Source: an uncultured Gammaproteobacteria bacterium
GTDB taxonomy: Bacteria; Patescibacteriota; Patescibacteriia; Patescibacteriales; CAYTAV01
Direction of reading: 5' to 3'
Length of the DNA: 64,000 bases
Assembly: GCA_964435875.1 (NCBI GenBank)
Contig: CAYTAV010000001.1
Span: forward strand, 2,318-66,317
Positions 24,560 to 50,722 of this stretch are shown piece by piece. Each line of letters begins with the position of its first letter. Within the stretch, counting starts at the first letter, position 1. The position numbers and the translations under genes were made by a program. The notes below the pieces were generated by a model. It saw only the letters and a program-made list of their open reading frames with translations, made no database searches and was not told the DNA's origin.

Positions 24560-25531
24560 TTATCTCAAACCGTATTTCTTGATATTCTCGTCGGCGATCG
24601 CCTGCAGGAATCCGATCTGCTTCCGGCCGGCATCAGTTTTGAACAGATGCGAGAAGCGCCCCTGGGCTTTCAAATACTCGTCTACCGGCGGGGCCGGATC
24701 CGGCACCTTCATGACTTCAGTTAGCTGACCATCGACATATTCAATGACCGGATAAAGTCCGGTCTGGGCCGCGAGCCTGCCGATCCTGACCGTTTCCGCG
24801 GGTTCGATCTTCCACCCGGGTATGCAGGGAACAGCGATTTGCAGATAGCTCGGGCCTTCGGTTTCAAGGGCTTTTTTAACCTTTTTCGCTATGTCGGGAA
24901 GGAAGCCGGCCGTTGTCTGGGCCGCGTATCTAAGGCCGTGCGCCAGTGCGATTGCGACCATATCCTTTTTCCGCTGGTGCGAGCCGATCGCATCTAGCGT
25001 GTTTCCGCTTCCCGCCGGGGTGGTTGTCGTATTGGCGGCCCAGGGCGTCGCACCGGATGCCTGGACGCCGGTGTTAGCATATGCCTCGTTGTCGTAGCAG
25101 ATGTATAAGATGTTTTCTCCCCGCTCCCACATGCCGCTGATCAAGCCGAATCCGATGTCGAAAGTGCCTCCATCACCGCCCTGCGCGACCACTTTAGGCA
25201 GGGCATCCTGGCTTTTCGTTTTTAGATTCCGGAATTGGTGCTTGTAGCGTAGGGCCGCCGATATGCCGGATGCGACGGCTGAGGCGTTTTCAAACAAGGA
25301 ATGGATCCAGGGCATGCCCCAGGCGGATTCAGGGAAGGGGGTCGTCGTTACCTCGAGGCATCCGGTGGCGTTAGCTATAATTACGTCCGGGCCGAGCGCT
25401 TCGGCCACGACGCGCGCGGCGATCAGCTGGCTGCAGCCGGCGCAAGCCCGATGTCCGGGCGCCAAAGGGAGATATTTATTCCCAGCCTTTGCAACCCCAT
25501 TTTTTTTAGCTATCGTTGTTTTTAATGCCAT
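24560..25531 (-). CDS. porB: 2-oxoacid (pyruvate):ferredoxin oxidoreductase, beta (TPP-binding) subunit
   Basis: GHRACAGC near the N-terminus, TPP motif GGDGGTFDIGF...YDNEAYANTG, PC..GW, and a C-terminal QGRFSHL block. The likely start is Met27 of the track ORF (MALKTT...). Confidence 0.85.
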   Translation of the reverse strand: MALKTTIAKKNGVAKAGNKYLPLAPGHRACAGCSQLIAARVVAEALGPDVIIANATGCLEVTTTPFPESAWGMPWIHSLFENASAVASGISAALRYKHQFRNLKTKSQDALPKVVAQGGDGGTFDIGFGLISGMWERGENILYICYDNEAYANTGVQASGATPWAANTTTTPAGSGNTLDAIGSHQRKKDMVAIALAHGLRYAAQTTAGFLPDIAKKVKKALETEGPSYLQIAVPCIPGWKIEPAETVRIGRLAAQTGLYPVIEYVDGQLTEVMKVPDPAPPVDEYLKAQGRFSHLFKTDAGRKQIGFLQAIADENIKKYGLR

Positions 25532-25601
25532 ATCCGAAATGAATAAAGAATAAAGAACCATTATAAAAGGAAATAACATATCGAGCCGGCTAGACCTGGA
25601 T

Positions 25602-25814
25602 TCAAGCACTAGGTGCAGTCGACGGATTTACACTGCTCATTTTCTTTAATTTATCGAACTGTCCCATGAATTTCGAAGCTTCCAGCATCTCAATCATAAC
25701 AGGTTTTCCGGTTCCGGAAAAGTGGATGATGAATTGCCCGAATTCGCGGGCATGGCTGATCGGCCCGCTTCCGAGCTCCCAGGAGAGTATGTTGGCATCT
25801 GGATCGTAGAGCAT
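25602..25814 (-). CDS. DUF2283-family small protein (antitoxin-like)
   Basis: MLYDPDANIL.W.L......S.E.....I......G.PV.IE.LEAS is the classic DUF2283 pattern. Confidence 0.6.
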   Translation of the reverse strand: MLYDPDANILSWELGSGPISHAREFGQFIIHFSGTGKPVMIEMLEASKFMGQFDKLKKMSSVNPSTAPSA

Positions 25815-25847
25815 GGGGGTGGAAAATAGAATATAATGTAGCAAGTA

Positions 25848-26237
25848 TTATGTAGAATGCTTGTCCTTAACGCTTTTGATTAGTCCATTTATTAGCTTAT
25901 GGGTGATTATAGTATTATCTGCAATTTTATTGAAGACTTCTTTGTCGATGTATCCAAGGTCACGAGATAATAGGAGTTGATTCTGCAATTCTGTCGTAGA
26001 ACCAAGTGCGATCGAATAAAATTGAATTTTCTCTCGAGAAGATCTTCGGCTGAATCCTTCCGAAATATTTGAAGATATTGAAACCACCGCCCGTCTTAAT
26101 TGACTTACTAAACCGTATAATTCATCTTTTGGATATTTCCTTGTAAGGCAGTAAATATCGAGGGCAAGTTTATGCGCCGTTTTCCAGGCATTCAAATCAG
26201 TAAAGCTGTTAATCTTATTATTATGAGCATTATACAT
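25848..26237 (-). CDS. Four-helix-bundle protein (23S rRNA intervening-sequence / Avd-like family)
   Basis: F.DL..W..AH.L...IY..T..YPK.E.YGL.SQLRRA..SI..NI.EGF.R.S..E...FY.IA.GS..EL..QL matches the IVS/S23p four-helix family very well. Confidence 0.85.
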   Translation of the reverse strand: MYNAHNNKINSFTDLNAWKTAHKLALDIYCLTRKYPKDELYGLVSQLRRAVVSISSNISEGFSRRSSREKIQFYSIALGSTTELQNQLLLSRDLGYIDKEVFNKIADNTIITHKLINGLIKSVKDKHST

Positions 26238-26259
26238 ACTACATGATTCATTATACTTT

Positions 26260-26478
26260 CTACATGTTCACCGGATAAAACGTTATCACCCGTTTGCCGC
26301 CCCCTTCTTTCCGATAGATGACGCCGATTCCTTCCTTGTAAGCGCAGAAAAGCCTGCCACGCCGGCCGGTCTTTTCCGGACTGGCGACAGCGTCAATAAC
26401 AGCCTCGCGCGTTATAAAGACCTTGTGCTTGTTCAAAATCTCGAATTTTTGCTCCGCGTAGGAGGAGAAGGAGATCAT
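26260..26478 (-). CDS. DUF4258-like small protein (toxin-like)
   Basis: The 72-aa product has S.YAE.KF..... I.RE.V..........GR....Y........VIY....G..RVITFYP, resembling DUF4258 members that usually pair with DUF2283. Confidence 0.4.
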   Translation of the reverse strand: MISFSSYAEQKFEILNKHKVFITREAVIDAVASPEKTGRRGRLFCAYKEGIGVIYRKEGGGKRVITFYPVNM

Positions 26479-26612
26479 ATTATTTATAAGTATATATATT
26501 AAAATAAAGACAGATAAAAAGCAATTAGTGCTACAAAATAAAAAACAACTGTTAATACAGCCGCCGTTTTATGGCCACGAAAAATTTGTGAAATAAATAA
26601 TGAAAAAATTGT

Positions 26613-27266
26613 TCAAGATTTATTTTTTATTTTCCTAAAAAGAATTAATAAAGTAACGATAAATGTTATACCTATAAATAAATATAGATATTTAGGGAAG
26701 GTACTATTTTGTTTATTAATATTATACAAGACTACGGTACCATTATTAATGATTTTTTCTCCATTTGCTTTTAATGTTTGAAGTGTTTCATCGCTGTATT
26801 GCACATCCTTTCGTACACAATCAGGCATGCAAGTTGTTACGTCTTCTCCCCTTTCGTATTCACAAATACTATTTCTATTGCATTTAACATATTTTGATAA
26901 ATCGATCCTTAGCATTTCCTTTTTATTTGCATTGTCAATAATTTTGCAATAACTTGACAAACTTAGATATGGAAGTTCGATTTTGTTTAGTCCCTCTACA
27001 GGATTAAAACCAATAGAGACTATCACAGTACCATCTTTTTCATAAAAAATAATATTAAATTTTCCTTTCGTATCAATAAGTTTTTGGAATAATTCAGGAT
27101 AAATCTCCCCATCTTTTAAAAGCGACTCATTTTTATTTTTAAGTTCGAATTTATTTATACTTGAATTGTAGAATATTTGTAAAGAGAAAATATCAGCATA
27201 TACTGAATGTGGTAAAACGGTATATAGAAAAATAATAAATAATGTAAAATAAAATATTTTCTTCAT
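26613..27266 (-). CDS. Secreted or membrane-anchored partner protein C2 (hypothetical)
   Basis: Signal-peptide-like MKKIFYFTLFIIFLYTVLPHSVYA, 5 Cys in a C..C...C....C..C cluster, and a C-terminal TM anchor with a basic tail. The start is uncertain: the track gives 27299, which overlaps the upstream gene. Confidence 0.5.
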   Translation of the reverse strand: MKKIFYFTLFIIFLYTVLPHSVYADIFSLQIFYNSSINKFELKNKNESLLKDGEIYPELFQKLIDTKGKFNIIFYEKDGTVIVSIGFNPVEGLNKIELPYLSLSSYCKIIDNANKKEMLRIDLSKYVKCNRNSICEYERGEDVTTCMPDCVRKDVQYSDETLQTLKANGEKIINNGTVVLYNINKQNSTFPKYLYLFIGITFIVTLLILFRKIKNKS

Positions 27267-27270
27267 AAGC

Positions 27271-28494
27271 TTATTGATTACATTTATCATAATAATCATC
27301 TACCCTTTGGCAATAATTATTGGTGCCACATACACCGCTTGCATGACCGGGACCAGCATTGTAGCATGCAGCAAGAATACAAACCGCAGATGTGCAATTT
27401 GCAGGTGCTGTCGCTGAGCCGGGTTGACAATTTTTTATTTTCGAATAGGCATTAAGAACATTAATTCCGCATTGGATATCTTGCATTAAATCGTTACAGT
27501 CTAAGCCTTGGCAATATGATTGTCTTGTGGCTGGAATAACCTGGGAATATCCGCACTCTCCCGAGGTGCCTGGCGCGTTGCTACAACCCTCTCCTCCTAC
27601 GATAATTGATTTAACTAAAGAAGGATTAATATTATTTGCTTGGCTTAACTGGTTTATTGCGTTGTCTACTTGGGTGCATTCTCCATTATTGCAGGCTGTT
27701 CCTGGGGGTATTGAGCTTTTATTACAACAGCACCGCACCACTTCACCTCCGTAATTAGTGCCGCAATAAGAATAATCGCTGTCATTTTGCTGGTCAGTGC
27801 ATAGTGATTGCCAACTGCATCCATCAACCGGCTTGACGTTGCAGCAGCAGACCTGGCCGGTCGGAATCGGATTCGTACTTCCGCTGGTGTCAGTTCCTGC
27901 GGAGCAATCTTCCGGACTTCCATAAACATTACCGTATTCAAGACTACACTCCGATTCATCCCTAAAACCGCATCCGAATTTCCGGTCTTCTGTCGAAGCA
28001 GTGGAAATTTTTTGGATCTCTTCCTTTGCTGGGATGATGACCCGCAAGGGATTGAATTTTATCAGGTCGGGGTTGACCCAGAACATGATAGTATAAGACC
28101 CAAGAGCGAGCACAAGGCCGGTCAAGGCCGACCCAATCCAGGAGCGGGCCTCGCCGACCTTCGAGGCGTTGCCGCCGGCCGTGATCCAAATCGCCCCGCC
28201 GATGACCATGGCAACCGCGGCGACGATGCCGACGATATTGATACCCCAGTTGTAGACGACCTTGATGTATTCGGCCATCCAGGGCACGCAATAGACGTCC
28301 AACGTCTTGTCCCCGCTCTTGAAAGTGTCGCATTTCGCCGGGTCGCCGAATTTTAGCTTGTCAGAAAAGGTGATTTTCGGGTTAGGCAATGTCCATTTCG
28401 GATCTTCGGCAGATACCGAAGTTATAATAAAAAGCAAAGCAAAAATATTAATCACGCAAATCAATAGGGGGGTTAAATATTTATTTTTATTCAT
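27271..28494 (-). CDS. P3: T4SS-pilin-like (TrbC/VirB2-like) membrane core fused to a Cys-rich region and a C-terminal SLT-like lytic transglycosylase domain
   Basis: Signal peptide, then the core YNWGINIVGIVAAVAMVIGGAIWITAGGNASKVGEARSWIGSALTGLVLALGSYT. About 26 Cys follow, including two CCC triplets. C-terminal motifs are GGEGCS, GYSQVIPATRQ and AACYNAGPG. Confidence 0.7.
   Translation of the reverse strand: MNKNKYLTPLLICVINIFALLFIITSVSAEDPKWTLPNPKITFSDKLKFGDPAKCDTFKSGDKTLDVYCVPWMAEYIKVVYNWGINIVGIVAAVAMVIGGAIWITAGGNASKVGEARSWIGSALTGLVLALGSYTIMFWVNPDLIKFNPLRVIIPAKEEIQKISTASTEDRKFGCGFRDESECSLEYGNVYGSPEDCSAGTDTSGSTNPIPTGQVCCCNVKPVDGCSWQSLCTDQQNDSDYSYCGTNYGGEVVRCCCNKSSIPPGTACNNGECTQVDNAINQLSQANNINPSLVKSIIVGGEGCSNAPGTSGECGYSQVIPATRQSYCQGLDCNDLMQDIQCGINVLNAYSKIKNCQPGSATAPANCTSAVCILAACYNAGPGHASGVCGTNNYCQRVDDYYDKCNQ
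27325..27672 (-). other. SLT-like lytic transglycosylase domain within P3 (aa ~275-390)
   Basis: INPSLVKSIIVGGEGCS (compare ..A...qES.fn), GECGYSQVIPATRQ (compare GA.GLMQimp.Ta), DIQCGINVLNAY, and AACYNAGPG (compare aaYNaGpg). Confidence 0.55.
28090..28254 (-). repeat. Conserved pilin-core coding repeat, copy in P3
   Basis: About 165 nt, GC-rich, and highly similar by eye to 30004-30168 and 30792-30957. Confidence 0.8.
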
Positions 28495-28497
28495 ATA

Positions 28498-29184
28498 TCA
28501 TTCTCCTTGCGATAAGCATCTTTCTGGTGAATTAGATAGATCGTTTGGGCAACATGTACAATAGAGAGATAATGTGTTTGCATTGAATTTTTGCCAATGG
28601 CATAGGCTATTTTTCTCGCATTCTTGTTGTATAGCAGTACTATTGCATAAATATTGGCCTTTGTTTTCTTTATTATAAAATTTTGAGGCTATACATTCTG
28701 TATTGGATTCGATTTCACATCTTGATTTTAAATCCTTATCATTAATTTTATTGCAAAAAGAGATTTTTTTTAAATTATTTGCAATTTCAAAGTAGCAAAA
28801 ATTTTTATCTTCCAACATATCACATAAAATTTCATCGTTTCTTGCAATTGCAAGCTCATATATGCACCAATGCCGAATATTTTTATTTGTAATGATTTTG
28901 CACTTATTCGGTTGATTGGATGCTACAACAGTGTCCTTAATACATTGATTCCAATAATTTTCTTTATTTGGGTCACTTCTAAGCTTATCGAGAATGAGAT
29001 TGCAAATAGAAGTTTTTTTGTCCTCTTTGGCTTTATTTATGATGCATTTAACAAAAATCGAACGGTCAGTGCTTTGGCATTTTTCAAAGGTTAAATCTTT
29101 TGTTACATTTTTAATTATCAAAAAAAAGCCCGCAATAACAGTTATTATTATTCCGTAAGTAATATATTTGACATTAATAACCAT
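28498..29184 (-). CDS. Membrane-anchored Cys-rich helical-repeat partner protein C1 (hypothetical)
   Basis: N-terminal TM helix, then 18 Cys spaced every ~8-20 aa in a recurring C..I......C pattern. The gene is very AT-rich, with a 24-nt gap to P2 and a 3-nt gap to P3. Confidence 0.5.
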   Translation of the reverse strand: MVINVKYITYGIIITVIAGFFLIIKNVTKDLTFEKCQSTDRSIFVKCIINKAKEDKKTSICNLILDKLRSDPNKENYWNQCIKDTVVASNQPNKCKIITNKNIRHWCIYELAIARNDEILCDMLEDKNFCYFEIANNLKKISFCNKINDKDLKSRCEIESNTECIASKFYNKENKGQYLCNSTAIQQECEKNSLCHWQKFNANTLSLYCTCCPNDLSNSPERCLSQGE

Positions 29185-29208
29185 AATTTAAATTTAAATA
29201 CATAGGCA

Positions 29209-30393
29209 TTATCCTTTGCATTGATTATCTCCTATATGGACGTGCGTATTGTGATCAGAGCGGTATGCGTCACAACTGTTTCCACAGACACTCTCGCATC
29301 CTGAACCGCAAATAATATAAGCTCCGCTTCCTCCTCCTGCTTGGGAGCAATTGTTGTTTACAGCATTTGCGATACTACATTGTTGTTGGCAACCACTTGT
29401 ACTCCAATCTATCGCATGGTTTTGGTAATCACCAGTTTTACACCCCCAATGGCAAGAAGTACATACATGCCCGCATATACTATTGCCTCCCACGCAGTTG
29501 TTACAGCAACATGCATTTGTTGTGCAACTATTGCTAGGCGTGCCGTAACCCCCAAAACTACCAACAGATACATTGTTTTGTATGCAATCTTTTAAATCTG
29601 TTATTTTTCCTGTACCTCCATCTTTCGCGCAACAACATTGGGACAGTCCTGCCCAGTTCGTTCCGCAGTTAGACCATGAAGACGATACCTGGTCTGAAGT
29701 GCATCCCATCTTCCATTCGCATCCCTGGTTGGCGCTAACGCCGCAACAGCAGACGTTGGTGCAAACACCCGGGTCTGTCATGTCGGCCGGGCAATCGGGG
29801 GTGCAGTTGCCTATCGAACCTTCGTTAGTGACGAATCCGTATTCAGATTTTGATTCGCATTCGGATCTTGTTGATTGGTAGCAGGTGGACTCGTCGATGG
29901 TTGTGGAAGTATTGCCTGATATCGGGATAATTTCTTCCTTTGTCGGGACGGCGACGCGCAAAGGCTTGAAGCGGACCAGGTCGGGGTTGATCGCATACAT
30001 GATCGTGTATGAGCCGAGCCCGAGCAGGAGCCCGGCGAACGCTCCGCCGATCCAAGTGCGGGCTTCACCGACTTTCGAGGCGTTGCCACCGGCCGTGATC
30101 CAGATCGCCCCGCCGACGACCATGGCGATTGCGGCGATAATACCTATGATCCCGATGCCATAAGTATATATTTGTTTTAAATATACCGCCATCCAGTTGA
30201 TGCAGAGCTTTTTCGAATCGTCCGGGCAGGGGGATGGGTCGTCAAAGCTGATATTCTGGGAAAATGTGATTTTTGGGGAGGGCTTGATAAAAGCGTAAAC
30301 CGGGGAAAAATTGATAAAAAAAAGCGATATTGCACAGAACAGCATAAAAAAAAATGATAATCTTTGCATTTTGCCCGAAATATAATTTAACAT
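29209..30393 (-). CDS. P2: T4SS-pilin-like membrane core fused to a very Cys-rich ectodomain with a possible LAS-type zinc-hydrolase motif set
   Basis: Core YTYGIGIIGIIAAIAMVVGGAIWITAGGNASKVGEARTWIGGAFAGLLLGLGSYT. About 32 Cys lie downstream, including three CCC triplets. SCHWGCKTGD gives H-x6-D and HNTHVH gives HxH. An alternative start is ATG 30369 (MQRLSFFF...). Confidence 0.65.
   Translation of the reverse strand: MLNYISGKMQRLSFFFMLFCAISLFFINFSPVYAFIKPSPKITFSQNISFDDPSPCPDDSKKLCINWMAVYLKQIYTYGIGIIGIIAAIAMVVGGAIWITAGGNASKVGEARTWIGGAFAGLLLGLGSYTIMYAINPDLVRFKPLRVAVPTKEEIIPISGNTSTTIDESTCYQSTRSECESKSEYGFVTNEGSIGNCTPDCPADMTDPGVCTNVCCCGVSANQGCEWKMGCTSDQVSSSWSNCGTNWAGLSQCCCAKDGGTGKITDLKDCIQNNVSVGSFGGYGTPSNSCTTNACCCNNCVGGNSICGHVCTSCHWGCKTGDYQNHAIDWSTSGCQQQCSIANAVNNNCSQAGGGSGAYIICGSGCESVCGNSCDAYRSDHNTHVHIGDNQCKG
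30004..30168 (-). repeat. Conserved pilin-core coding repeat, copy in P2
   Basis: Nucleotide-level similarity to the P1 and P3 cores, strongest over the GGAIWITAGGNASKVGEAR-coding part. Confidence 0.75.
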
Positions 30394-30405
30394 GCCTGTT
30401 TCTGG

Positions 30406-31239
30406 CTAGTTACAGTAATAATGGTAAGTTCCTCCTCCCGCTTGGTTCGAGACGAATTTACCCCAGCAACCACTCCCGCAACATTGCGCACAGCAGGCGT
30501 ATACTGCCCCATCGACAGATTTAAAACGCGAATCGCTTGTCTCATAAACTGAAGTACCGCACGGGTAATTGCCTTCAAGGCAGTTCTGTTTTTGCCCTTG
30601 TACGCACGAATCGGTTCCTTCACCCTCGACACATTTGCATACGTCGATTGTGATTAAGTTTCCCTGGCCATCGTCGTCATGCTCTACACTCATTTCAAGA
30701 TGGTTTCCAACTCCGCAGATTGATTCTTTTTCGACCTGTTTTATCGCAGAAGTCTTGAAATTAACTAGATCCGGGTTGATCGTATTGAAAAGGCCGTAGG
30801 ACATTAGTGCAAGCACAAGGCCGGTCAGGGCCGACCCGATCCAAGCGCGGGCTTCACCGACTTTCGAGGCGTTGCCACCGGACGTGATCCAGATCGCCCC
30901 GCCGACGACCATAGCGACTGCGGCGACGATGCCGACGATATTGATGCCCCAGTTGTAGATAGCCTTGACGTATCTTGCCAGGTTGCCCGTACTATGATCG
31001 TTAGTGTCAAATGAATAACCGGGTATCTCAACCTGATTCTTAAAGTTTATGGCTGGCTGGCCGCTTTGTTGGTTTGTCGGTTTAGTTATTTCGATTCCAA
31101 GGCTGACTGTGCAGGAGCCATCGATACACTTTCCAGCATAGCCGCCCTCTGAAGGGCAATCCGAATCTATCGTACACGCAAAGATGACCGCTGGATAAAA
31201 CAGGATTAACAGAAAGAAAAAAGCATAATACCGATGCAT
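30406..31239 (-). CDS. P1: T4SS-pilin-like membrane core flanked by Cys-rich N- and C-terminal segments
   Basis: Signal peptide MHRYYAFFFLLILFYPAVIFA, then the knot-like CTIDSDCPSEGGYAGKCIDGSC. Core YNWGINIVGIVAAVAMVVGGAIWITSGGNASKVGEARAWIGSALTGLVLALMSYG. The C-terminal tail has CC..CC..C. The start at 31239 avoids overlap with ruvC. Confidence 0.65.
   Translation of the reverse strand: MHRYYAFFFLLILFYPAVIFACTIDSDCPSEGGYAGKCIDGSCTVSLGIEITKPTNQQSGQPAINFKNQVEIPGYSFDTNDHSTGNLARYVKAIYNWGINIVGIVAAVAMVVGGAIWITSGGNASKVGEARAWIGSALTGLVLALMSYGLFNTINPDLVNFKTSAIKQVEKESICGVGNHLEMSVEHDDDGQGNLITIDVCKCVEGEGTDSCVQGQKQNCLEGNYPCGTSVYETSDSRFKSVDGAVYACCAQCCGSGCWGKFVSNQAGGGTYHYYCN
30792..30957 (-). repeat. Conserved pilin-core coding repeat, copy in P1
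   Basis: Roughly nine of ten positions are identical by eye to the P3 copy over ~135 nt. Confidence 0.8.
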
Positions 31240-31270: not shown

Positions 31271-31783
31271 TTAAGGAATATTATTCGCCCCGCAGATGGC
31301 GATCGCCAGGGCGTCGGCCGCATCGTCCGGCTTAGGCAATTCATCCAGGCAAAGCAGAAGTTTTACCATTTTCTGGACCTGCGTTTTCGAAGCCGCGCCG
31401 TAAGCCGCGACCGCCTGCTTGACTTGCAGGGGGGTGAATTCGGCAACCGGAATGCCCGCCTGTTTCGCAGCCAGAAGAACGATCCCGCGTGCATGGCCGA
31501 CAACCAGGGCTGTCTTTACGTTCTTGCAGAAGAATAACTGTTCAACCGCGATCTTAGCCGGTCCATATCTTTTGATAATCGCCGTCAGGCCTGAAAATAG
31601 GCTTTCAAGCCTTTCAGGCAAAGCGTCCCGCGCGCCGGTTTTGATCGATCCATAACCGAGGCACGAGAGTTTATGGCCCTCCGAGCAGATGATCCCATAG
31701 CCGGTATCGGCGATTCCCGGGTCGATCCCGAGTATGATCCGCTTTCTAGAAGGTTGCCCTATGGGCTGAGCCGCGCTTTTCAT
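31271..31783 (-). CDS. ruvC: Crossover junction endodeoxyribonuclease RuvC
   Basis: ILGIDPG...TGYGII, the E in VEQLFF, and the C-terminal DDAADALAIA catalytic acidic residues. Confidence 0.9.
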   Translation of the reverse strand: MKSAAQPIGQPSRKRIILGIDPGIADTGYGIICSEGHKLSCLGYGSIKTGARDALPERLESLFSGLTAIIKRYGPAKIAVEQLFFCKNVKTALVVGHARGIVLLAAKQAGIPVAEFTPLQVKQAVAAYGAASKTQVQKMVKLLLCLDELPKPDDAADALAIAICGANNIP

Positions 31784-43615: not shown

Positions 43616-43999
43616 ATGATGCGACCAATCCATTTTGACTTATATGCAGATGACCCGGAAAGGGCGGCTAAATTCTATACCGACGTATTCGGTTGGAAAT
43701 TCGAGAAATGGGATAATCCGACAGCCGTTTATTGGCTGATTACTACCGGCCCCGAAGGGACGCCGGGAATCAACGGAGGTATGGGGCGGCGCAATCCGGA
43801 ATATCCGGATGGCGTATCGCATGCCGCGACACTGACCTATGGCGTCCCGGACTATGCCCAGTACGCGGAAAAGATCCGTCAGCACGGCGGTGAAGCCGGC
43901 GAGAAGATGGCGATCCCGGGGTTCGGCTGGCACGGCATGTGCAAGGACACCGAAGGCAACGTCTTCGGCATCATGCAGGACGATCCAAGCGCGAAATAA
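43616..43999 (+). CDS. VOC (glyoxalase/bleomycin-resistance) family protein
   Basis: I.F.LY.DD.ERA..FY..VFGW.F..W and a C-terminal D.EGN.FG.MQ.D. Confidence 0.7.
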   Translation: MMRPIHFDLYADDPERAAKFYTDVFGWKFEKWDNPTAVYWLITTGPEGTPGINGGMGRRNPEYPDGVSHAATLTYGVPDYAQYAEKIRQHGGEAGEKMAIPGFGWHGMCKDTEGNVFGIMQDDPSAK

Positions 44000-44132
44000 C
44001 GAAATATAGGACAAGTCTGGTTTGTAGTTCGGACTTGCCCTTTTTCGATTTTATTAACAGCATACAAAAAATCCAAAACCACCATCATGGCCTTGGATTT
44101 CAAAAATCTATTAAATTGTGCTGACGGCCGGC

Positions 44133-44369
44133 TTAGGCATGATGCATTGCTTCGCGGTGCGCTGTTGCAGTAAATCGTCCCGGGTAGAATGCCAGGTAAA
44201 CCCCCGAGAGGCCAACCAGAGCATAGATGACCCTGGAAAGCACTGACATTTCCCCGAACAGGAATGCTACCAGATCGAAGCTGAAAAATCCGACGAGCCC
44301 CCAGTTGATCGCACCAACTACTACTAACCCGATCATAAGCCAGTCGTACCAATGGATTCTGTTTTCCAT
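44133..44369 (-). CDS. DUF378 domain membrane protein
   Basis: VVGAINWGLVGFFSFDLVAFLFG......SRVIYALVGLSG is the DUF378 hallmark. Confidence 0.8.
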   Translation of the reverse strand: MENRIHWYDWLMIGLVVVGAINWGLVGFFSFDLVAFLFGEMSVLSRVIYALVGLSGVYLAFYPGRFTATAHREAMHHA

Positions 44370-46110: not shown

Positions 46111-47778
46111 ATGAAGAACACTATAAAGAGCATCGCCACCCTTTTGGTCGTGACCGTCATGATTGTATTTGTCGCAGGACAGGTCAAGGCCGAATACCTG
46201 GCGGCGAACGTTGAGACCGGATATGAATCCGAAAATACGGTCAAAGCGGAATCTGTAAGCGAACACCTGATGGTCAACGGCAACCACGAGATGCTTTCCA
46301 ATGAAGCAGACGTCGAAGGAGAAACCGGAGATAACGATAGCGACTATAATACAGGCAAAGGCCTGGTCGACGGCGGTGACGTTGTGATCGTCGGAGGTTT
46401 TACTAGCGAAGTAAACGTCAATATGACCGAGCAGGCCAGCACCGAGCTGCATGACTTTACGGCAATGAATGACACGACCGGCGCTTATTCGGACAACGAC
46501 GCGCTTGCCTCGCTTTTCACGGCGGTTTTCGGCGCAAACGAGAACCTGGCTTTCGTCGCTAATAAGGCGAAGATCGAAGGCGAGTCAGGTGATAACGAGA
46601 CCAGCTACAATACAGGTGACGGCGAGGTCAAATCCGGCGACGCAGAGATCGACGCTAGCGTGATGAACACGGTCAACGGCAACCTGTTGATCATCGGCAA
46701 TGATATCGATGAAGAAAGCGAATCCCTGCTCGAATCGAATTCCTCCAACTCCAATACCGGAGCGAATTCGAAAAATAAGGCGAAGGTCCGCATCAACCAC
46801 ATGGCTACAGCCGAGAATATCAATATGGCCATGCTGATGAATTATCTGAAGACCGAAGCAGAGACCGGCGATAATGAATCGAGCTATAACACCGGTTCGG
46901 CCAAGATCGATACCGGCGATGCAAACACCAAGACTACGGTCAAGAACGACGTCAATTACAACCAGACCATGATCAACATGGATCTCGGAGACTCTAATCT
47001 CGAGGCTTCAAACGACACGACCGGATATGAATCCGATAACAAGGCCAAGGTCGAATTAAATAGTGTGGTCGGCGTAATGAATGCCAACCAGGCCATGGTC
47101 ATGAATAAGGTTAAGAACGAAGCAGAGACCGGCGATAACGAAGCCAGCTATAATACCGGTTCGGCAACGATCAAGTCTGGCGATGCGGACAGCCAAGTCA
47201 GCATCGACAATGGCGATACGCTCAACAAGAACGAGACCGAAGTCAATATCGATCTCGGCAACATCAGCATGACAGCATCCAACGCCACTACCGGAGCAAA
47301 TTCAACGAATAAGGCCAAGGCTGAATTCGGCAGTGCGGTTGCGGTCGGCAATACTAACGGTTTGATGCTCAGCAACGACGTCAAGTCCGAAGCAGAAACC
47401 GGCGATAACGAGGCGAGCTACAATACCGGGACCGGGAACATCACTTCCGGCGACGCCACCTCGAACGTGACTGTAAAGAACGACGCCAACTACAATTCGA
47501 CGACGGTAAACGTCGCTCCGACCGCTAATGTCCAAGCGACCAACGATACGACCGGAGCGAATTCGACCAACAAGGCCGAAGCATCATCCGCGTCTGTCGT
47601 CTCGGTTGCTAACCAAAATTGCGGCGTGATCTCGAATGAAGTCAAGTCGGAATCAAATACCGGCGGCAACTCGACGAGTTACAACACCGGAGCCGGCACG
47701 GTTAAATCCGGCGACGCAAGCATTTCCTTCGGCGTGAACAACACGACCAACGGGAACAGCACGACCATCGGCAACTAG
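46111..47778 (+). CDS. Secreted Asn/Thr/Gly-rich repeat protein (six ~90-aa repeats), a beta-solenoid or amyloid-like fibre subunit candidate
   Basis: Signal peptide ending VKA. Recurring N.TTGA.S.NKAK... and E(A)ETGDNE.SYNTG...I.(S/T)GDA...V..N motifs, with (E/S/N)(T/S)G(D/G)N at aa 71, 159, 251, 339, 429 and 516. Confidence 0.75.
   Translation: MKNTIKSIATLLVVTVMIVFVAGQVKAEYLAANVETGYESENTVKAESVSEHLMVNGNHEMLSNEADVEGETGDNDSDYNTGKGLVDGGDVVIVGGFTSEVNVNMTEQASTELHDFTAMNDTTGAYSDNDALASLFTAVFGANENLAFVANKAKIEGESGDNETSYNTGDGEVKSGDAEIDASVMNTVNGNLLIIGNDIDEESESLLESNSSNSNTGANSKNKAKVRINHMATAENINMAMLMNYLKTEAETGDNESSYNTGSAKIDTGDANTKTTVKNDVNYNQTMINMDLGDSNLEASNDTTGYESDNKAKVELNSVVGVMNANQAMVMNKVKNEAETGDNEASYNTGSATIKSGDADSQVSIDNGDTLNKNETEVNIDLGNISMTASNATTGANSTNKAKAEFGSAVAVGNTNGLMLSNDVKSEAETGDNEASYNTGTGNITSGDATSNVTVKNDANYNSTTVNVAPTANVQATNDTTGANSTNKAEASSASVVSVANQNCGVISNEVKSESNTGGNSTSYNTGAGTVKSGDASISFGVNNTTNGNSTTIGN
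46210..47775 (+). repeat. Six imperfect in-frame coding repeats, period ~87-92 codons
   Basis: Spacing of the ETGDN-type motif in the translation. Confidence 0.8.
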
Positions 47779-47890: not shown

Positions 47891-50722
47891 ATGTCTTACC
47901 TTAAAAGCCTTAAAACACTGAAAAAAGGAGCGGCAGGAGTCATGCTGGCGATGCTCGTTGCCTGGACGATCGCCCCGATACTTAAAGCCGAAGAGGGCGC
48001 AGTTACAGGCAGTACGGCAAGCGGAACAGCAGCGGAAACCGCCTCAACGACCGAAAGTGCGGTCGCGCCGGCAGGCGAAACTTCCGCGACGGATAATTCC
48101 GAAGCCGGTATCGGGGCCGGCAACCTGGCTACCGGCGCAGATTCAAGCAATTCAGCATCGACCGAAATCAGCAATACGCAATCCGTAATTAATATTAATA
48201 CGGCAACGACCACTAACGATTCATACTTGAAAGCCGACACGGGCAGGAATACGGCAAGCTATAATACGGGGTCGGGCATCATTACGACAGAAAAAGCCAG
48301 GGGCAAGGGCGAGATCGTCAATACGATCAACCTTAATATGGTCATCCCGGAGATTGCAGGAATCGGTCCGATTTCGGCAGAAAACGGAAATACTGGCGCC
48401 AGCTCTGATAATATCGCCAAGGTCAACGTCAACAACCAGCTCACCGTACATAATTCCAACAGCGCCAATACGACGAACCTGGTCGAAGCAGAAGTAAATT
48501 CAGGCAATAACGCGGCCGAGGGCAATACCGGCCACGGCATGATCCTCACCGGATCTGCAAGCCTAGGGCTAAATTTCATTACGATGTCGAACGCTAATTT
48601 CGTCGGTTCGCAGCGCTTCTATGCCAATTGGCAGAACATTTATGATAACCATACGGGCGATATCGATATTTCGACGGAAGCGGCCGTCAGCGCTTCCCCC
48701 CTGTCCGGACTGCTGATCGACGCTTCGAACAGCGATACCGGGGCTGGTTCGAACAATCAGGCGATTGTCGATGTAAACGACCAGACGAGCATCATCAACC
48801 AGAATACCGGCAAGATCAGGAACGAGATCAGCGCCAAGGTCACAACCGGCAAGAACAAGGCCAGCAAGAATACCGGAACAGGATCGATCGCCACCGGCCA
48901 GGCGAACTCGTCAGTCAACGTGATGAATTTCCTGAATTCGAACATAGTATCCTCGAACTGGTGGCTCAAGACCTTGAACGTCTTCGGCAGCTGGAAAGGA
49001 AATATGGTATTGCCGATGATGCCGAGGCCGAACCTGACGGTTACCCAGCCGGAACTTGAGGCAAGCGCCAATGCCACCGGCGCAGGTTCTGAAAATGCGG
49101 CTGAAGCGAATATCAACACTTCGGTAGCTATAGCAAACACAAACAATGCCGTGATAACCAACAGCGTCGATATCAAGACCAACTCGGGAGACAACAAGAC
49201 CTCGTTTAACGGAGGCACCGGAATCGTAAAGTTCGGCGATGCAGACGCCGAGACTAACGAGCTTAATGTTGCGAATGTGAACGTAACGGGCGATTCATGG
49301 TGGATGGTCGTCGTTAACAAGTTCGGCAAATGGCTGGGAACGACTATCGGGTCGCCTGTCGAGACCACGGTTAGCGCGACTGCGGCTACCACAGTCCTGA
49401 CGCCCAACGGTTCGGGCATCCGGGTGAATAACAATTCGACAGGACCTGAATCGAATAACTTCGCAGGAGCGAACGTTACCCACAGCACCGAAATAACCAA
49501 TGCGAACGAAGCTGATATCATGAACAAGCTCAAGATCGAGGCGATTACCGGCGAGAACGAAACACAGTTCAATTCCGGTCACGGATATATCGAAGCCGGC
49601 AGCATCGATGCGGTCAACAATCTCGTAAATTTTGCGAATGCCAATGTCAATGTCGGCAATTGGCTGGTTACCGTGATTAACGTTTTCGGAGACTGGGAGG
49701 GTAACGTCGTGTTCAGGACCGCGACCCAATCCGAGATCGACGCCATAAATTCTAACAGCCAGCTGATGGTCAACGGTGGATCGTCGTCAAATGCAGGTAC
49801 CGGAGCAGGTTCCTCGAACAGTTCCGGTAGCAGCTCTTCCAGTACCGGAACAACATCGAATACTAACGCATCCGATACGGCAAACAACACTTCAGCTTCG
49901 ACGCTGACGGGAGAGAATTCCGCGAGCTATAATACCGGGTCAGGGATCGTTACGGCCGGCGGCGCTGATTCCAACACGACCATCCAGAACCAGGTAAATA
50001 CGAATGTTACCGGCGCATCATCAGGCGGCGGCAATGCCACATCTACGAATTCAGGAACCGGTGCCGGGTCCAATAATTCGGCGGTTACTAATAATTCCAC
50101 TGATACGAACGTAGCAAATAGCAATACAGCCCAAGTCACGAATTCCGTACAAGCCAGCAACAACACGGGGCAGAATTCGGCCAATTATAATACAGGCAAC
50201 GGTGCGGTCGATACCGGATGGGCGACGACTTTCGCGGGCCTTTATAACCAGGTTAACGAAAACCAGACCAACGCAGGCCAGCTGCTTTCCGACCTTAACA
50301 GCATAACTGATACGACCGGCAACGACATCGGTTCGCAAACGCAAGGGAACGGCTCTGGCAACCAGAATTCGGATACAACGCCCTCCGGAGGCGGCTCATC
50401 TGCCGGATCTACGTCTTCGGGGGGAGCGGGCGGCGGCCAACCCGCTCTGACGCAGACAACCGCGCCTAGCGGACAACAGACAGTCCAGAGCGCATATTAC
50501 CCCCCGGCTCCCGTCACATACGGCCAAGGCCGAACGGTCGATTCGGCGAGCGCAGAGGACGCTAAGAACGACCTTAATTCGGATGGTTATATCAACGACC
50601 TGGACTTCTCAATCTTGATGGCGAACTGGAAAAAACCGGTCCACTCGCTTAAAGCGGATATCAATAGCGACGGATCAGTCGATGAATCCGACCTGCGGAT
50701 CCTGCTCGCTAGATGGTATTGA
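47891..50722 (+). CDS. Large secreted repeat protein (same repeat class plus Trp-containing inserts), low-complexity linker and C-terminal dockerin
   Basis: Signal peptide. Repeats N.TGA.S.N.A.V.V.N ... TG.N.A..NTG.G.I.TG.A with inserts WWLKTLNVFGSWKGNMV, WWMVVVNKFGKWLG and WLVTVINVFGDWEGNVV. Ser/Gly/Asn/Thr linker. C-terminal DLNSDGYINDLD...DINSDGSVDESD. Confidence 0.75.
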   Translation: MSYLKSLKTLKKGAAGVMLAMLVAWTIAPILKAEEGAVTGSTASGTAAETASTTESAVAPAGETSATDNSEAGIGAGNLATGADSSNSASTEISNTQSVININTATTTNDSYLKADTGRNTASYNTGSGIITTEKARGKGEIVNTINLNMVIPEIAGIGPISAENGNTGASSDNIAKVNVNNQLTVHNSNSANTTNLVEAEVNSGNNAAEGNTGHGMILTGSASLGLNFITMSNANFVGSQRFYANWQNIYDNHTGDIDISTEAAVSASPLSGLLIDASNSDTGAGSNNQAIVDVNDQTSIINQNTGKIRNEISAKVTTGKNKASKNTGTGSIATGQANSSVNVMNFLNSNIVSSNWWLKTLNVFGSWKGNMVLPMMPRPNLTVTQPELEASANATGAGSENAAEANINTSVAIANTNNAVITNSVDIKTNSGDNKTSFNGGTGIVKFGDADAETNELNVANVNVTGDSWWMVVVNKFGKWLGTTIGSPVETTVSATAATTVLTPNGSGIRVNNNSTGPESNNFAGANVTHSTEITNANEADIMNKLKIEAITGENETQFNSGHGYIEAGSIDAVNNLVNFANANVNVGNWLVTVINVFGDWEGNVVFRTATQSEIDAINSNSQLMVNGGSSSNAGTGAGSSNSSGSSSSSTGTTSNTNASDTANNTSASTLTGENSASYNTGSGIVTAGGADSNTTIQNQVNTNVTGASSGGGNATSTNSGTGAGSNNSAVTNNSTDTNVANSNTAQVTNSVQASNNTGQNSANYNTGNGAVDTGWATTFAGLYNQVNENQTNAGQLLSDLNSITDTTGNDIGSQTQGNGSGNQNSDTTPSGGGSSAGSTSSGGAGGGQPALTQTTAPSGQQTVQSAYYPPAPVTYGQGRTVDSASAEDAKNDLNSDGYINDLDFSILMANWKKPVHSLKADINSDGSVDESDLRILLARWY
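50567..50719 (+). other. Dockerin type I-like module (two EF-hand-like segments)
   Basis: D-L-N-S-D-G-Y-I-N-D-L-D-FSILMANW and D-I-N-S-D-G-S-V-D-E-S-D-LRILLARW, matching the duplicated DxNxDGxIxxxD calcium loops followed by helices. Confidence 0.7.

Follow-up and report, generated by a model that had tools for sequence, protein, structure and literature searches.

The closest described relatives of the genes considered here are the VirB2-like pilin arrays of Patescibacteria (Quinonero-Coronel et al. 2025, PMC12102498; Wang et al. 2023, PMC10633639). According to this literature, Patescibacteria carry such arrays, most genomes with VirB2 have no recognisable VirB1 (PMC12102498), and the pilin array and type IV secretion system (T4SS) are essential in Southlakia epibionticum (PMC10633639; review PMC12857230). 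The locus analysed here lies at positions 26613-31239, on the minus strand, of a 64,000-nt stretch of contig CAYTAV010000001.1; this whole stretch of DNA is referred to as the window. Three of its five genes, P1, P2 and P3, encode a pilin-type core fused to a long, cysteine-rich tail, and the other two, C1 and C2, encode small membrane-anchored proteins. As far as sequence comparison can tell, the fusion operon is a conserved variant of the Patescibacteria pilin family that has not been described before, and is part of a much larger set of core fusions.

The likeness to the described arrays is considerable. Both have a homologous two-helix core, both occur in the same group of organisms, and in both, several divergent paralogues stand in a row that is sometimes split by non-pilin genes. 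However, array members are short pilins, while P1-P3 carry Cys-rich tails of 112-258 residues, one with a muralytic-type end. The fusion cores are 57-73% identical to their closest relatives, compared with an average of 25% within the described arrays, and the fusion locus, unlike those arrays, is not beside virB4. The available parts of PMC12102498 and PMC10633639 do not mention pilin::hydrolase fusions. Similarly, a full-text literature search on PF18895, pilin fusions and Cys-rich or hydrolase-bearing pilins in Patescibacteria found no description of the fusion architecture, in line with an earlier interpretation of the letters alone (the sequence-only reading), which knew of none.

Three further groups of proteins invite comparison. 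VirB1-like hydrolases, such as pIP501 TraG, pCF10 PrgK and ICEBs1 CwlT, combine a membrane anchor with extracellular SLT and/or peptidase domains (CHAP, NlpC/P60 or M23-type). Tails in the fusion family likewise show SLT, NlpC/P60, C39-like and M15 domains, and orthologues of P3 carry the motif ESxGN...G(L/I)FQIN. In contrast to TraG, PrgK and CwlT, however, the fusions are anchored by a pilin hairpin and not by one N-terminal transmembrane helix, their Cys content is extreme, P1-P3 lie outside a T4SS operon, and no sequence homology is detectable beyond the generic SLT domain. The second group comprises the propilins of RP4 TrbC and Ti VirB2, which also have a C-terminal extension past helix 2, although theirs ranges from a few to 27 residues and is discarded. 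C-terminal trimming of a T4SS propilin is established for RP4 TrbC.

The third group is that of polymorphic toxins with their immunity proteins (CdiA-CT/CdiI, Rhs-CT/RhsI and X-Tfe/X-Tfi, the last being wall-hydrolase effectors of the bacteria-killing T4SS of Xanthomonas). The locus resembles these in its conserved N-terminal module, demarcating motif, variable C-terminal domain and small downstream gene, in the lowered GC content of the C-terminal domain and of the gene that follows, and in the predicted extracytoplasmic partners. Unlike in these systems, partner genes are absent from most fusion relatives and, to our knowledge, a pilin core is not listed among the trafficking domains of polymorphic toxins.

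The interpretation favoured here, to which we assign a probability of roughly 0.55, is that P1-P3 are Sec-exported VirB2-type hairpins with extracellular, disulfide-stabilised tails, which would act as membrane-tethered or sparsely pilus-borne modules that cut or bind the cell wall.

Organisation of the locus

The locus consists of five intact open reading frames (ORFs), all on the minus strand, in the order P1, P2, C1, P3, C2:

30406-31239, minus strand: P1, a 277-residue pilin-core fusion
29209-30393, minus strand: P2, a 394-residue pilin-core fusion
28498-29184, minus strand: C1, 228 residues, membrane-anchored at the N-terminus, 18 Cys
27271-28494, minus strand: P3, a 407-residue pilin-core fusion
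26613-27266, minus strand: C2, 217 residues (228 from an upstream ATG at 27299)

This is the layout described in the sequence-only reading, whose Cys counts proved exact. The genes are separated by only 12 nt (P1/P2), 24 nt (P2/C1), 3 nt (C1/P3) and 4 nt (P3/C2). P1-P3 and C1 consist of 5.4-8.9% cysteine, whereas the average for the window's 40 remaining long ORFs is 0.98%. In total there are 16 Cys in P1, 35 in P2, 29 in P3, 18 in C1 and five in C2; P2 has three CCC triplets and P3 two. Another Cys-rich ORF, at 43879-44352, lies across other reading frames and is unlikely to be a true gene.

The shared pilin core

The three cores form a three-copy, 267-nt direct repeat family. They are listed below with a short pilin from the end of the window that serves as a comparison member; the gathering score of PF18895 is 26.6 bits.

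30745-30981, minus strand: core of P1 (residues 87-165), PF18895 E 3.9e-4, 20.9 bits
29956-30195, minus strand: core of P2 (residues 67-146), no PF18895 match singly
28042-28281, minus strand: core of P3 (residues 72-151), PF18895 E 7.5e-3, 16.8 bits
63590-64000, plus strand: short PF18895 pilin, 34.8 bits, cut by the end of the window

The short pilin scores above the gathering threshold and is thus a real member of the family, as had been supposed. The cores had been called almost identical; over a 77-residue block this holds for P1 and P3, which share 58 residues, while P2 is somewhat more diverged (52 identical residues with P1 and 54 with P3). When a profile of 17 fusion cores was aligned by hhalign with one of 18 short pilins, the probability was 99.5% and the E-value 3e-22. 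All 18 comparison pilins match PF18895, and four also match TrbC/VirB2. Because this profile-profile match is decisive, the shared core can be assigned to the Patescibacteria VirB2-like pilin family PF18895 in spite of the weak single matches, which bears out the earlier recognition of a VirB2/TrbC-like core. Some relatives exceed the gathering score on their own (37.4 bits in L018 and 28.6 bits for the P3 orthologue in L063; L-numbers denote related loci).

Structure prediction agrees with this assignment. AlphaFold2 (AF2) models the core as a helical hairpin, with helices at residues 72-105 and 110-140 of P3 and 67-100 and 105-135 of P2, at predicted local distance difference test (pLDDT) values of 76-91. 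A Foldseek search with the P3 model found no match in the PDB at E<=0.001, nor did it set pilins apart from helical hairpins in general. An archaeal conjugation pilin among its matches, at rank 16 with E 3.9, is meaningless. Sequence searches of the PDB with P3, P2, and the core, P2-tail and C1-family profiles returned either no matches or spurious ones.

By hydropathy, P1, P2 and P3 have the same plan: a signal peptide, a short N-terminal segment and two helices, 1 and 2, joined by the basic loop GGNASKVGEAR. After helix 2 comes a junction motif, SYTI(M/L)..(I/V)NPDL(V/I).F, which is kept in 18 of 18 subfamily members and sits precisely where the core gives way to the variable tail, at the point where short pilins end. 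Normal PF18895 proteins stop soon after helix 2, but all three proteins continue beyond the core for 112 (P1), 250 (P2) and 258 (P3) residues. Mean column identity of the core across 17 proteins is 62%, whereas the tails are unalignable. The much better conservation of the core, including its loop, points to constraint from an interaction and not to a passive anchor. It argues that the core does more than hold the protein in the membrane, perhaps serving for recognition by an assembly machine.

The position of the junction motif raises a different prospect, in which the fusions are precursors that are cut after helix 2, freeing a Cys-rich enzyme or adhesin and leaving a mature short pilin. The conservation of the motif (SYTIL..INP.LV.F) fits such a cut, as does the analogy with C-terminal processing of RP4 TrbC. 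However, a linked protease gene is lacking, the motif might just as well serve as a helix cap or linker, and nothing in the data points to cleavage. Processing of this kind seems rather improbable.

The tails

The positive-inside rule and the analogy with VirB2 predict a cytoplasmic loop and an external tail. The outward position of the tails is also suggested by the signal peptides, by the DsbA-like genes near related loci, and by the Cys numbers, which are even in every predicted outer segment: 26, 32 and 12 in the tails of P3, P2 and P1, and 2, 2 and 4 in the respective N-terminal parts. The earlier description of the tails as extracytoplasmic Cys-rich extensions is thus well matched by these predictions. 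The segments outside the cores are as follows:

P1, residues 1-21, minus strand: signal peptide, with a 4-Cys motif in the N-terminal part
30409-30744, minus strand: P1 tail, 112 residues, 12 Cys
29602-29919, minus strand: P2 Cys module (residues 159-264), clade-specific, with two CCC
29212-29601, minus strand: P2 C-terminal His/Asp/Cys-rich domain (residues 265-394), with SCHWGC at 313-318, AIDW at 327-330 and HNTHVH at 381-386
27688-28011, minus strand: P3 Cys module (residues 162-269)
27310-27678, minus strand: P3 divergent SLT-like domain (residues 273-395), with GGE302G, GYSQVIP at 315-321 and CYNAGPG at 377-383

The tail of P1 resembles that of a 267-residue protein in L007 (E 3e-9), and orthologues of P1 occupy the matching place in L063 and L064. 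A Cys module of about 105 residues, EC...vCCC.{6}GC.W...CGT..GG...CCC, is common to P2 and P3 and restricted to these two proteins and their orthologues.

Several weak but independent lines support the SLT-like end of P3 proposed by the sequence-only reading, as a divergent lytic transglycosylase domain that keeps a candidate catalytic Glu, Glu302. Residues 279-385 match positions 2-101 of the 117 in Pfam SLT (PF01464) at E 0.096 and 12.7 bits, with a cut-off of 21.3 bits. BLASTP relates the tail, at E 1e-5, to the SLT domain of a pilin fusion at L009:684-1652, which itself matches Pfam SLT at 1e-24, and residues 273-348 match a PHROG 'lytic tail fiber protein' at E 1.6e-3. The motifs GGE302G, G315YSQVIP and C377YNAGPG align with ATESGG, GLMQLMP and AYNWGPG of the L009 protein, and the P3 orthologue in L064 has precomputed SLT_3 and SLT matches.

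The C-terminal domain of P2 is harder to place. Full-length orthologues in L063 and L064 (36-38% identity) keep the motifs SCH.GC, A[IV]DW and H..H.H[IM]; the conserved residues are H315, D329 (13-15 residues further on), H381, H384 and H386. The domain is probably metal-binding. The HxH motif lies eight residues from the C-terminus, as it does in the LAS-like tails of relatives. An H-x6-D...HxH set of a LAS peptidase had been proposed for P2. Its letters are present (H315-x6-D322 and H384-V-H386), but D322, on which the LAS interpretation rests, is replaced by Y or L in the orthologues. The P2 tail has no match in Pfam, NCBIfam or PHROG, and a profile of its orthologues has none in the PDB. 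In hhalign it aligned with HxH-type tails at E 0.089 (probability below 1%) and with VanY-type tails at E 0.52. Given the unconserved D322, the non-significant hhalign results and the empty PDB search, assignment of P2 to LAS/M15 is unverified.

Pilin-core fusions in related genomes

A scan for the core among GTDB species representatives yielded 58 loci. The closest come from Candidatus Falkowbacteria, and others from Uhrbacteria, Magasanikbacteria and Komeilibacteria. A hidden Markov model of the core identified 182 core-bearing ORFs that fall into three size classes: short pilins, in arrays of up to 13; tailed proteins of 200-700 residues; and giants of 1,000-3,467 residues with up to 180 Cys. 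A homologue search with the core profile returned short pilins only, so that no census of tail domains came from that search. Fusions of core and tail occur in more than 60 independent assemblies and are widespread in ABY1-type Patescibacteria.

Among 78 tailed members, 69 match PF18895 (E<=1e-3), six match TrbC/VirB2 and 14 carry Big_5 domains. About 12 of the 78 have a wall-hydrolase domain, namely SLT, SLT_2, Peptidase_M15, M15_3, M15_4, VanY, 3D, NlpC/P60 or C39-like, and SLT_3 is also found among the hydrolase tails of relatives. Several of these domains are clearly intact, with matches of 1e-24 for SLT in L009 and up to 4e-19 for Peptidase_M15_4. Judged by these domain matches, the fusion of a pilin core to a wall hydrolase is a recurrent design in the relatives.

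The tails are not all of this kind, and it could be argued that the proteins are non-enzymatic adhesins, in which the hairpin is a mere pilin-derived anchor with no link to a T4SS and the hydrolase-like ends are degenerate binding modules. Relatives with Ig-like (Big_5), TIG and beta-propeller tails, and giants with Cys-rich tails of 2,000-3,300 residues, would suit that idea, as would the lack of T4SS genes nearby, the atypical SLT motifs of P3 (E-G for E-S and GYSQ for GLMQ) and the failure of the P2 domain to match any enzyme family. Against it, the core and its cytoplasmic loop are conserved beyond the needs of an anchor, and the hydrolase domains of relatives such as L009 are clearly intact. 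Pure adhesins are, on this evidence, quite improbable.

A broader idea is that the VirB2-type core is a general display or delivery module for exoproteins, from 200-residue hydrolases to 3,400-residue Cys-rich giants, with pilin-borne polymorphic effectors at this locus. Such exoproteins would be handed to a T4SS-like machine or a pilus and presented to the host cell, where exchangeable wall-degrading heads, with anchored immunity-type partners (P2/C1 and P3/C2), might open the host envelope. As it stands, this view is speculative and unlikely.

The giants have features of their own. They occur at L028:9815-20158, L051:9444-19847, L056:9830-19816, L057:4509-14903, L039:9824-17743, L040:4414-12888, L047:11468-20146 and L059:2683-11190, among others. 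In each, a pilin-type core is followed by a tail with 110-180 Cys, and in most cases the gene directly before encodes another core-bearing protein, of about 500-1,000 residues. The pair has the appearance of a distinct, conserved system of two genes that uses this same core.

Longer runs of PF18895 genes were also seen. Arrays of 11-15 genes at L032:4289-11213, L045:5136-15420, L042:6267-15459, L038:1220-9712 and L048:5090-14915 adjoin or interleave with a gene for a solute-binding protein of about 460 residues (SBP_bac_1/8 confirmed in L032 and L045). Some of their members have Cys-rich tails, and no homologue of the VirB4 type found in L003 occurs within 10 kb. Many records of metagenome-assembled genomes labelled 'uncultured Gammaproteobacteria bacterium' (L005, L006, L016, L026, L028, L045 and other third-party annotation records) contain typical Patescibacteria loci, including pilin arrays and the gene frame described below, and are probably mislabelled.

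Conservation of the operon

The surroundings of the locus comprise the following features:

31271-31783, minus strand: ruvC (Pfam RuvC 2.8e-51)
26544-26565, minus strand: terminator-like hairpin and T-run, 48 nt downstream of the C2 stop
24560-26478, minus strand: downstream frame, with a 72-residue gene (26260-26478), a DUF2283 gene (25602-25844) and porB (24560-25609)

P1 starts 31 nt past the ruvC stop, the distance reported earlier, and the hairpin is likely to mark the end of the operon. The upstream frame consists of ruvC, a methyltransferase gene and yebC, in the same order as in L063 and L064. The order ruvC-P1-P2-C1-P3-(anchored gene) is kept in at least these two other genomes. L063 reads yebC, methyltransferase, ruvC, genes of the P1, P2, C1 and P3 types, an anchored gene, the 72-residue gene, the DUF2283 gene, porB and rpoC; L064 has the same order with an inserted AAA_14/DUF4143 gene. 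Judged by this shared order, the operon is conserved within a small ABY1/Falkowbacteria-like clade.

Between the window and L063/L064, flanking housekeeping genes are 60-72% identical, P2 is 36-38% identical over its full length and C1 34-43%. For P3, identity is 37% and extends over the first 260 residues only. The P3 orthologues end in a VirB1-like SLT_3 domain with the motif ES(S/G)GN...G(L/I)FQIN, whereas the end of P3 in the window is of the classical SLT type. By these comparisons, the operon is conserved and its locus a variable hot spot.

The same frame recurs more widely. The 72-residue/DUF2283/porB genes are found after pilin-fusion arrays in L005, L006, L007, L010, L018, L023, L025, L063 and L064. 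In L018, L007, L008 and L021, the fusion array lies between porA and the 72-residue/DUF2283/porB genes, with a DsbA-like gene at the head of the cluster; the Pfam assignments of the por cluster were made on L018, and the other three show the matching size pattern. In L003, a DsbA-like gene directly precedes a pilin::VanY fusion.

Some details of these neighbourhoods may be added. The array at L018:6606-13421 splits a 2-oxoacid:ferredoxin oxidoreductase cluster, in the order DsbA-like gene, porG, porD (ferredoxin), porA, array, 72-residue gene, DUF2283 gene, porB. In the window, porB alone (24560-25609) is adjacent, and ruvC stands upstream in place of the por genes. An AAA_14/DUF4143 ATPase gene is found repeatedly in or beside arrays (L008:6653-7876, L006:1706-2905, L064:3607-4788 and a contig of JGI 3300075153), behaving like a mobile element at the hot spot.

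Conservation also bears on whether the tails are real. P1, P2, C1, P3 and C2 are each singletons in a collection of 15 billion proteins, as would be expected if the tails were annotation or assembly artefacts, or the decaying extensions of pseudogenes. However, the long ORFs are intact, including one of 228 codons in DNA of 26-29% GC, the architecture recurs in independent assemblies, full-length orthologues keep the Cys positions and motifs, and the genes have tight operon-like spacing with a terminator-like hairpin after C2. The conservation data effectively refute this explanation, which is scarcely credible.

Composition and the putative partner genes

GC content at third codon positions (GC3) falls in steps along the operon. 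It is 0.71-0.81 in the cores, 0.46-0.55 in the middle Cys modules, 0.31-0.33 in the end domains of P2 and P3, 0.26 in C1 (overall GC 29%) and 0.20 in C2 (overall GC 26%), with sharp boundaries between the segments; flanking genes range from 0.55 to 0.70. The cores themselves are patchy. P1 and P2 share 22 of 22 codons over AMVVGGAIWIT.GGNASKVGEAR, and P1 and P3 have a similar patch, while beyond such patches identical residues are mostly encoded by different codons. This patchiness suggests recombination among the paralogous cores; the mosaics look like gene conversion and are compatible with an exchange of 3' cassettes.

Low GC content need not mean recent transfer in the case of C1, as the gene is AT-rich and vertically kept in three genomes: the orthologues in L063 and L064 occupy the same position and are likewise AT-richer than their neighbours. 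This weakens the case for C1 having been acquired recently from elsewhere. Phages or plasmids as the source of the low-GC parts were also considered and set aside, since the P3 tail, C2 and the core have no relatives in IMG/VR, and P3 has none in PLSDB or INPHARED.

C1 consists, after its N-terminal anchor, of Cys-bracketed helical repeats of about 28 residues and a conserved C-terminal module, C.W...CTCCP.D....P.RCL..GE. A word-indexed search returned C1 itself only, but an exhaustive search gave 360 matches, so C1 is no orphan. Four of the matches (designated P0019, P0020, P0021 and P0027) are full-length relatives that have in common with C1 the N-terminal anchor, repeats of the form C[YF]..[IV]A....[DN]...C..I and the C-terminal module; the remainder are multi-repeat proteins that have the repeat alone in common. 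By these shared features, C1 is a member of a small family of membrane-anchored, Cys-bracketed helical-repeat proteins. P0020 and P0021 are encoded between genes of the P2 and P3 types, and P0019 directly upstream of a gene for a 402-residue T4SS_pilin protein. No match to the C1-family pattern was found in a scan of metagenome contigs.

The multi-repeat proteins form a group of their own. Those numbered P0022-P0167, which match residues 75-160 of C1, belong to a large un-named family of up to 1,034 residues with repeats of about 28 residues (C[YF]..[IV]A....[DN]...C..I......C). One of those scanned, P0022, carries a DUF5667 domain at its N-terminus, and the C1-type repeat is not covered by any Pfam model.

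C2 has a signal-like N-terminus, a CGDGxC-like Cys motif at residues 129-150, and a C-terminal transmembrane anchor with a basic tail. Hydropathy agrees here with the anchors and signal-like segment described for C1 and C2 in the sequence-only reading. No relatives of C2 were found in Pfam, NCBIfam, PHROGs, PADLOC, the 66 loci, JGI metagenome contigs or IMG/VR. The genes in the C2 position of L064 (g202) and L063 (g126) resemble C2 solely in ending with a transmembrane anchor and a basic tail; g202 is anchored at its N-terminus as well. C1 and C2 could be membrane-anchored, extracytoplasmic partners of P2 and P3, serving as inhibitors, immunity proteins or assembly factors.

That C1 and C2 are effector/immunity-type partners had been suggested from the layout alone. 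The idea is possible for this locus, but it is not general. The gene after 61 tailed relatives is another core gene in 29 cases and a small anchored gene in three, two of which are those in the window. The alternation of fusion and partner genes is thus, on gene order, confined to the small clade of the window.

Taken to its full extent, the partner idea turns the locus into a set of polymorphic effector/immunity cassettes, with the core serving for trafficking or display, exchangeable wall-degrading toxin ends, and C1 and C2 as immunity proteins for P2 and P3. The stepwise fall in GC3 along each unit would be expected of such cassettes, as would the recombination indicated by the codon mosaics. 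The end of P3 (GGEG..GYSQVIP..CYNAGPG) differs in type from those of L063 and L064 (ES(S/G)GN..G(L/I)FQIN) and the downstream gene has become unrecognisable along with it, while the P2 tail and C1 are jointly kept in three genomes. Both C proteins appear to be extracytoplasmic and anchored, as immunity against wall hydrolases would demand. However, this co-variation is anecdotal because it involves three genomes only, and C1 is vertically kept and AT-rich in all three. P1 has no partner gene, the P2 tail has no known toxin activity, candidate immunity genes do not accompany the arrays with hydrolase tails in L001, L009 and L022, and core genes far outnumber small anchored genes behind tailed genes (29 versus three). 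We regard such cassettes as doubtful.

How the fusions might work

Under the interpretation that we favour, of anchored wall-cutting or wall-binding modules, the three paralogues would be exported by Sec and inserted into the membrane by the pilin hairpin, presenting the tail outside after the junction motif. The tail would be folded oxidatively; DsbA-like genes flank related loci. P1-P3 would then act while tethered to the membrane or sparsely incorporated into a pilus. In a VirB1-like role, the module might let a pilus or T4SS through the wall of its own cell; alternatively, it might attack the host wall at the site of contact.

Several observations weigh against this proposal. Published pilus structures suggest that a tail of 110-260 residues on every subunit would be a poor fit to a homopolymeric VirB2-type filament, so incorporation into a pilus, if any, would have to be sparse or terminal. 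No VirB4, VirB6 or VirD4 was detected in the window or in the vicinity of most related loci. Singly, P1 and P3 remain below the PF18895 gathering score and P2 does not match. The SLT matches of P3 are weak, and its Glu aligns in BLAST only after a one-residue gap shift. Lastly, AF2 models of full-length P3 and P2, built from shallow 18-row alignments, have mean pLDDT values of only 51.6 and 46.7; the hairpin alone is confident and both tails are below 50. With such tails, and with no significant Foldseek match, no tail fold is confirmed.

The lack of VirB4 in the window, already noted by the sequence-only reading, was substantiated in two ways. Nine large ORFs of the window have other Pfam assignments or none, and phmmer with the VirB4-like protein of L003 found no match in the window or in 61 other loci. 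L003 alone has a VirB4-like gene within 10 kb (DUF87/P-loop_TraG, with TraC-like genes).

Other features of the window

A 23S_rRNA_IVP (four-helix-bundle) gene at 25848-26237, minus strand, with GC3 0.32, is inserted between the 72-residue and DUF2283 genes and is absent from the corresponding position of related loci. Elsewhere in the window, 46111-47778 (plus strand) encodes a secreted-looking protein of 555 residues with repeats of about 40 residues (..AETGDNEASYNTG.G.I.SGDA..) and no Pfam match. The next gene, at 47891-50722 (plus strand), encodes a 943-residue protein with a C-terminal dockerin domain.

Implications for Patescibacteria

Patescibacteria depend on physical contact with host cells, and the T4SS and pilin array are essential in the one genetically tractable species (PMC10633639, PMC12102498). 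Fusions of a pilin core to a wall hydrolase could supply the missing VirB1-type opening of the wall, or a tool for breaching that of the host. The conserved operon, the junction motif, the SLT head with its candidate catalytic Glu and the C1 partner family provide handles by which these roles can be tested. More broadly, matches to 'T4SS pilin' in these genomes span very different proteins, from short pilins to fusions with hydrolase or Ig-like domains and giants rich in Cys. Given this diversity, the number of 'pilins' should not be taken for the number of filament subunits.

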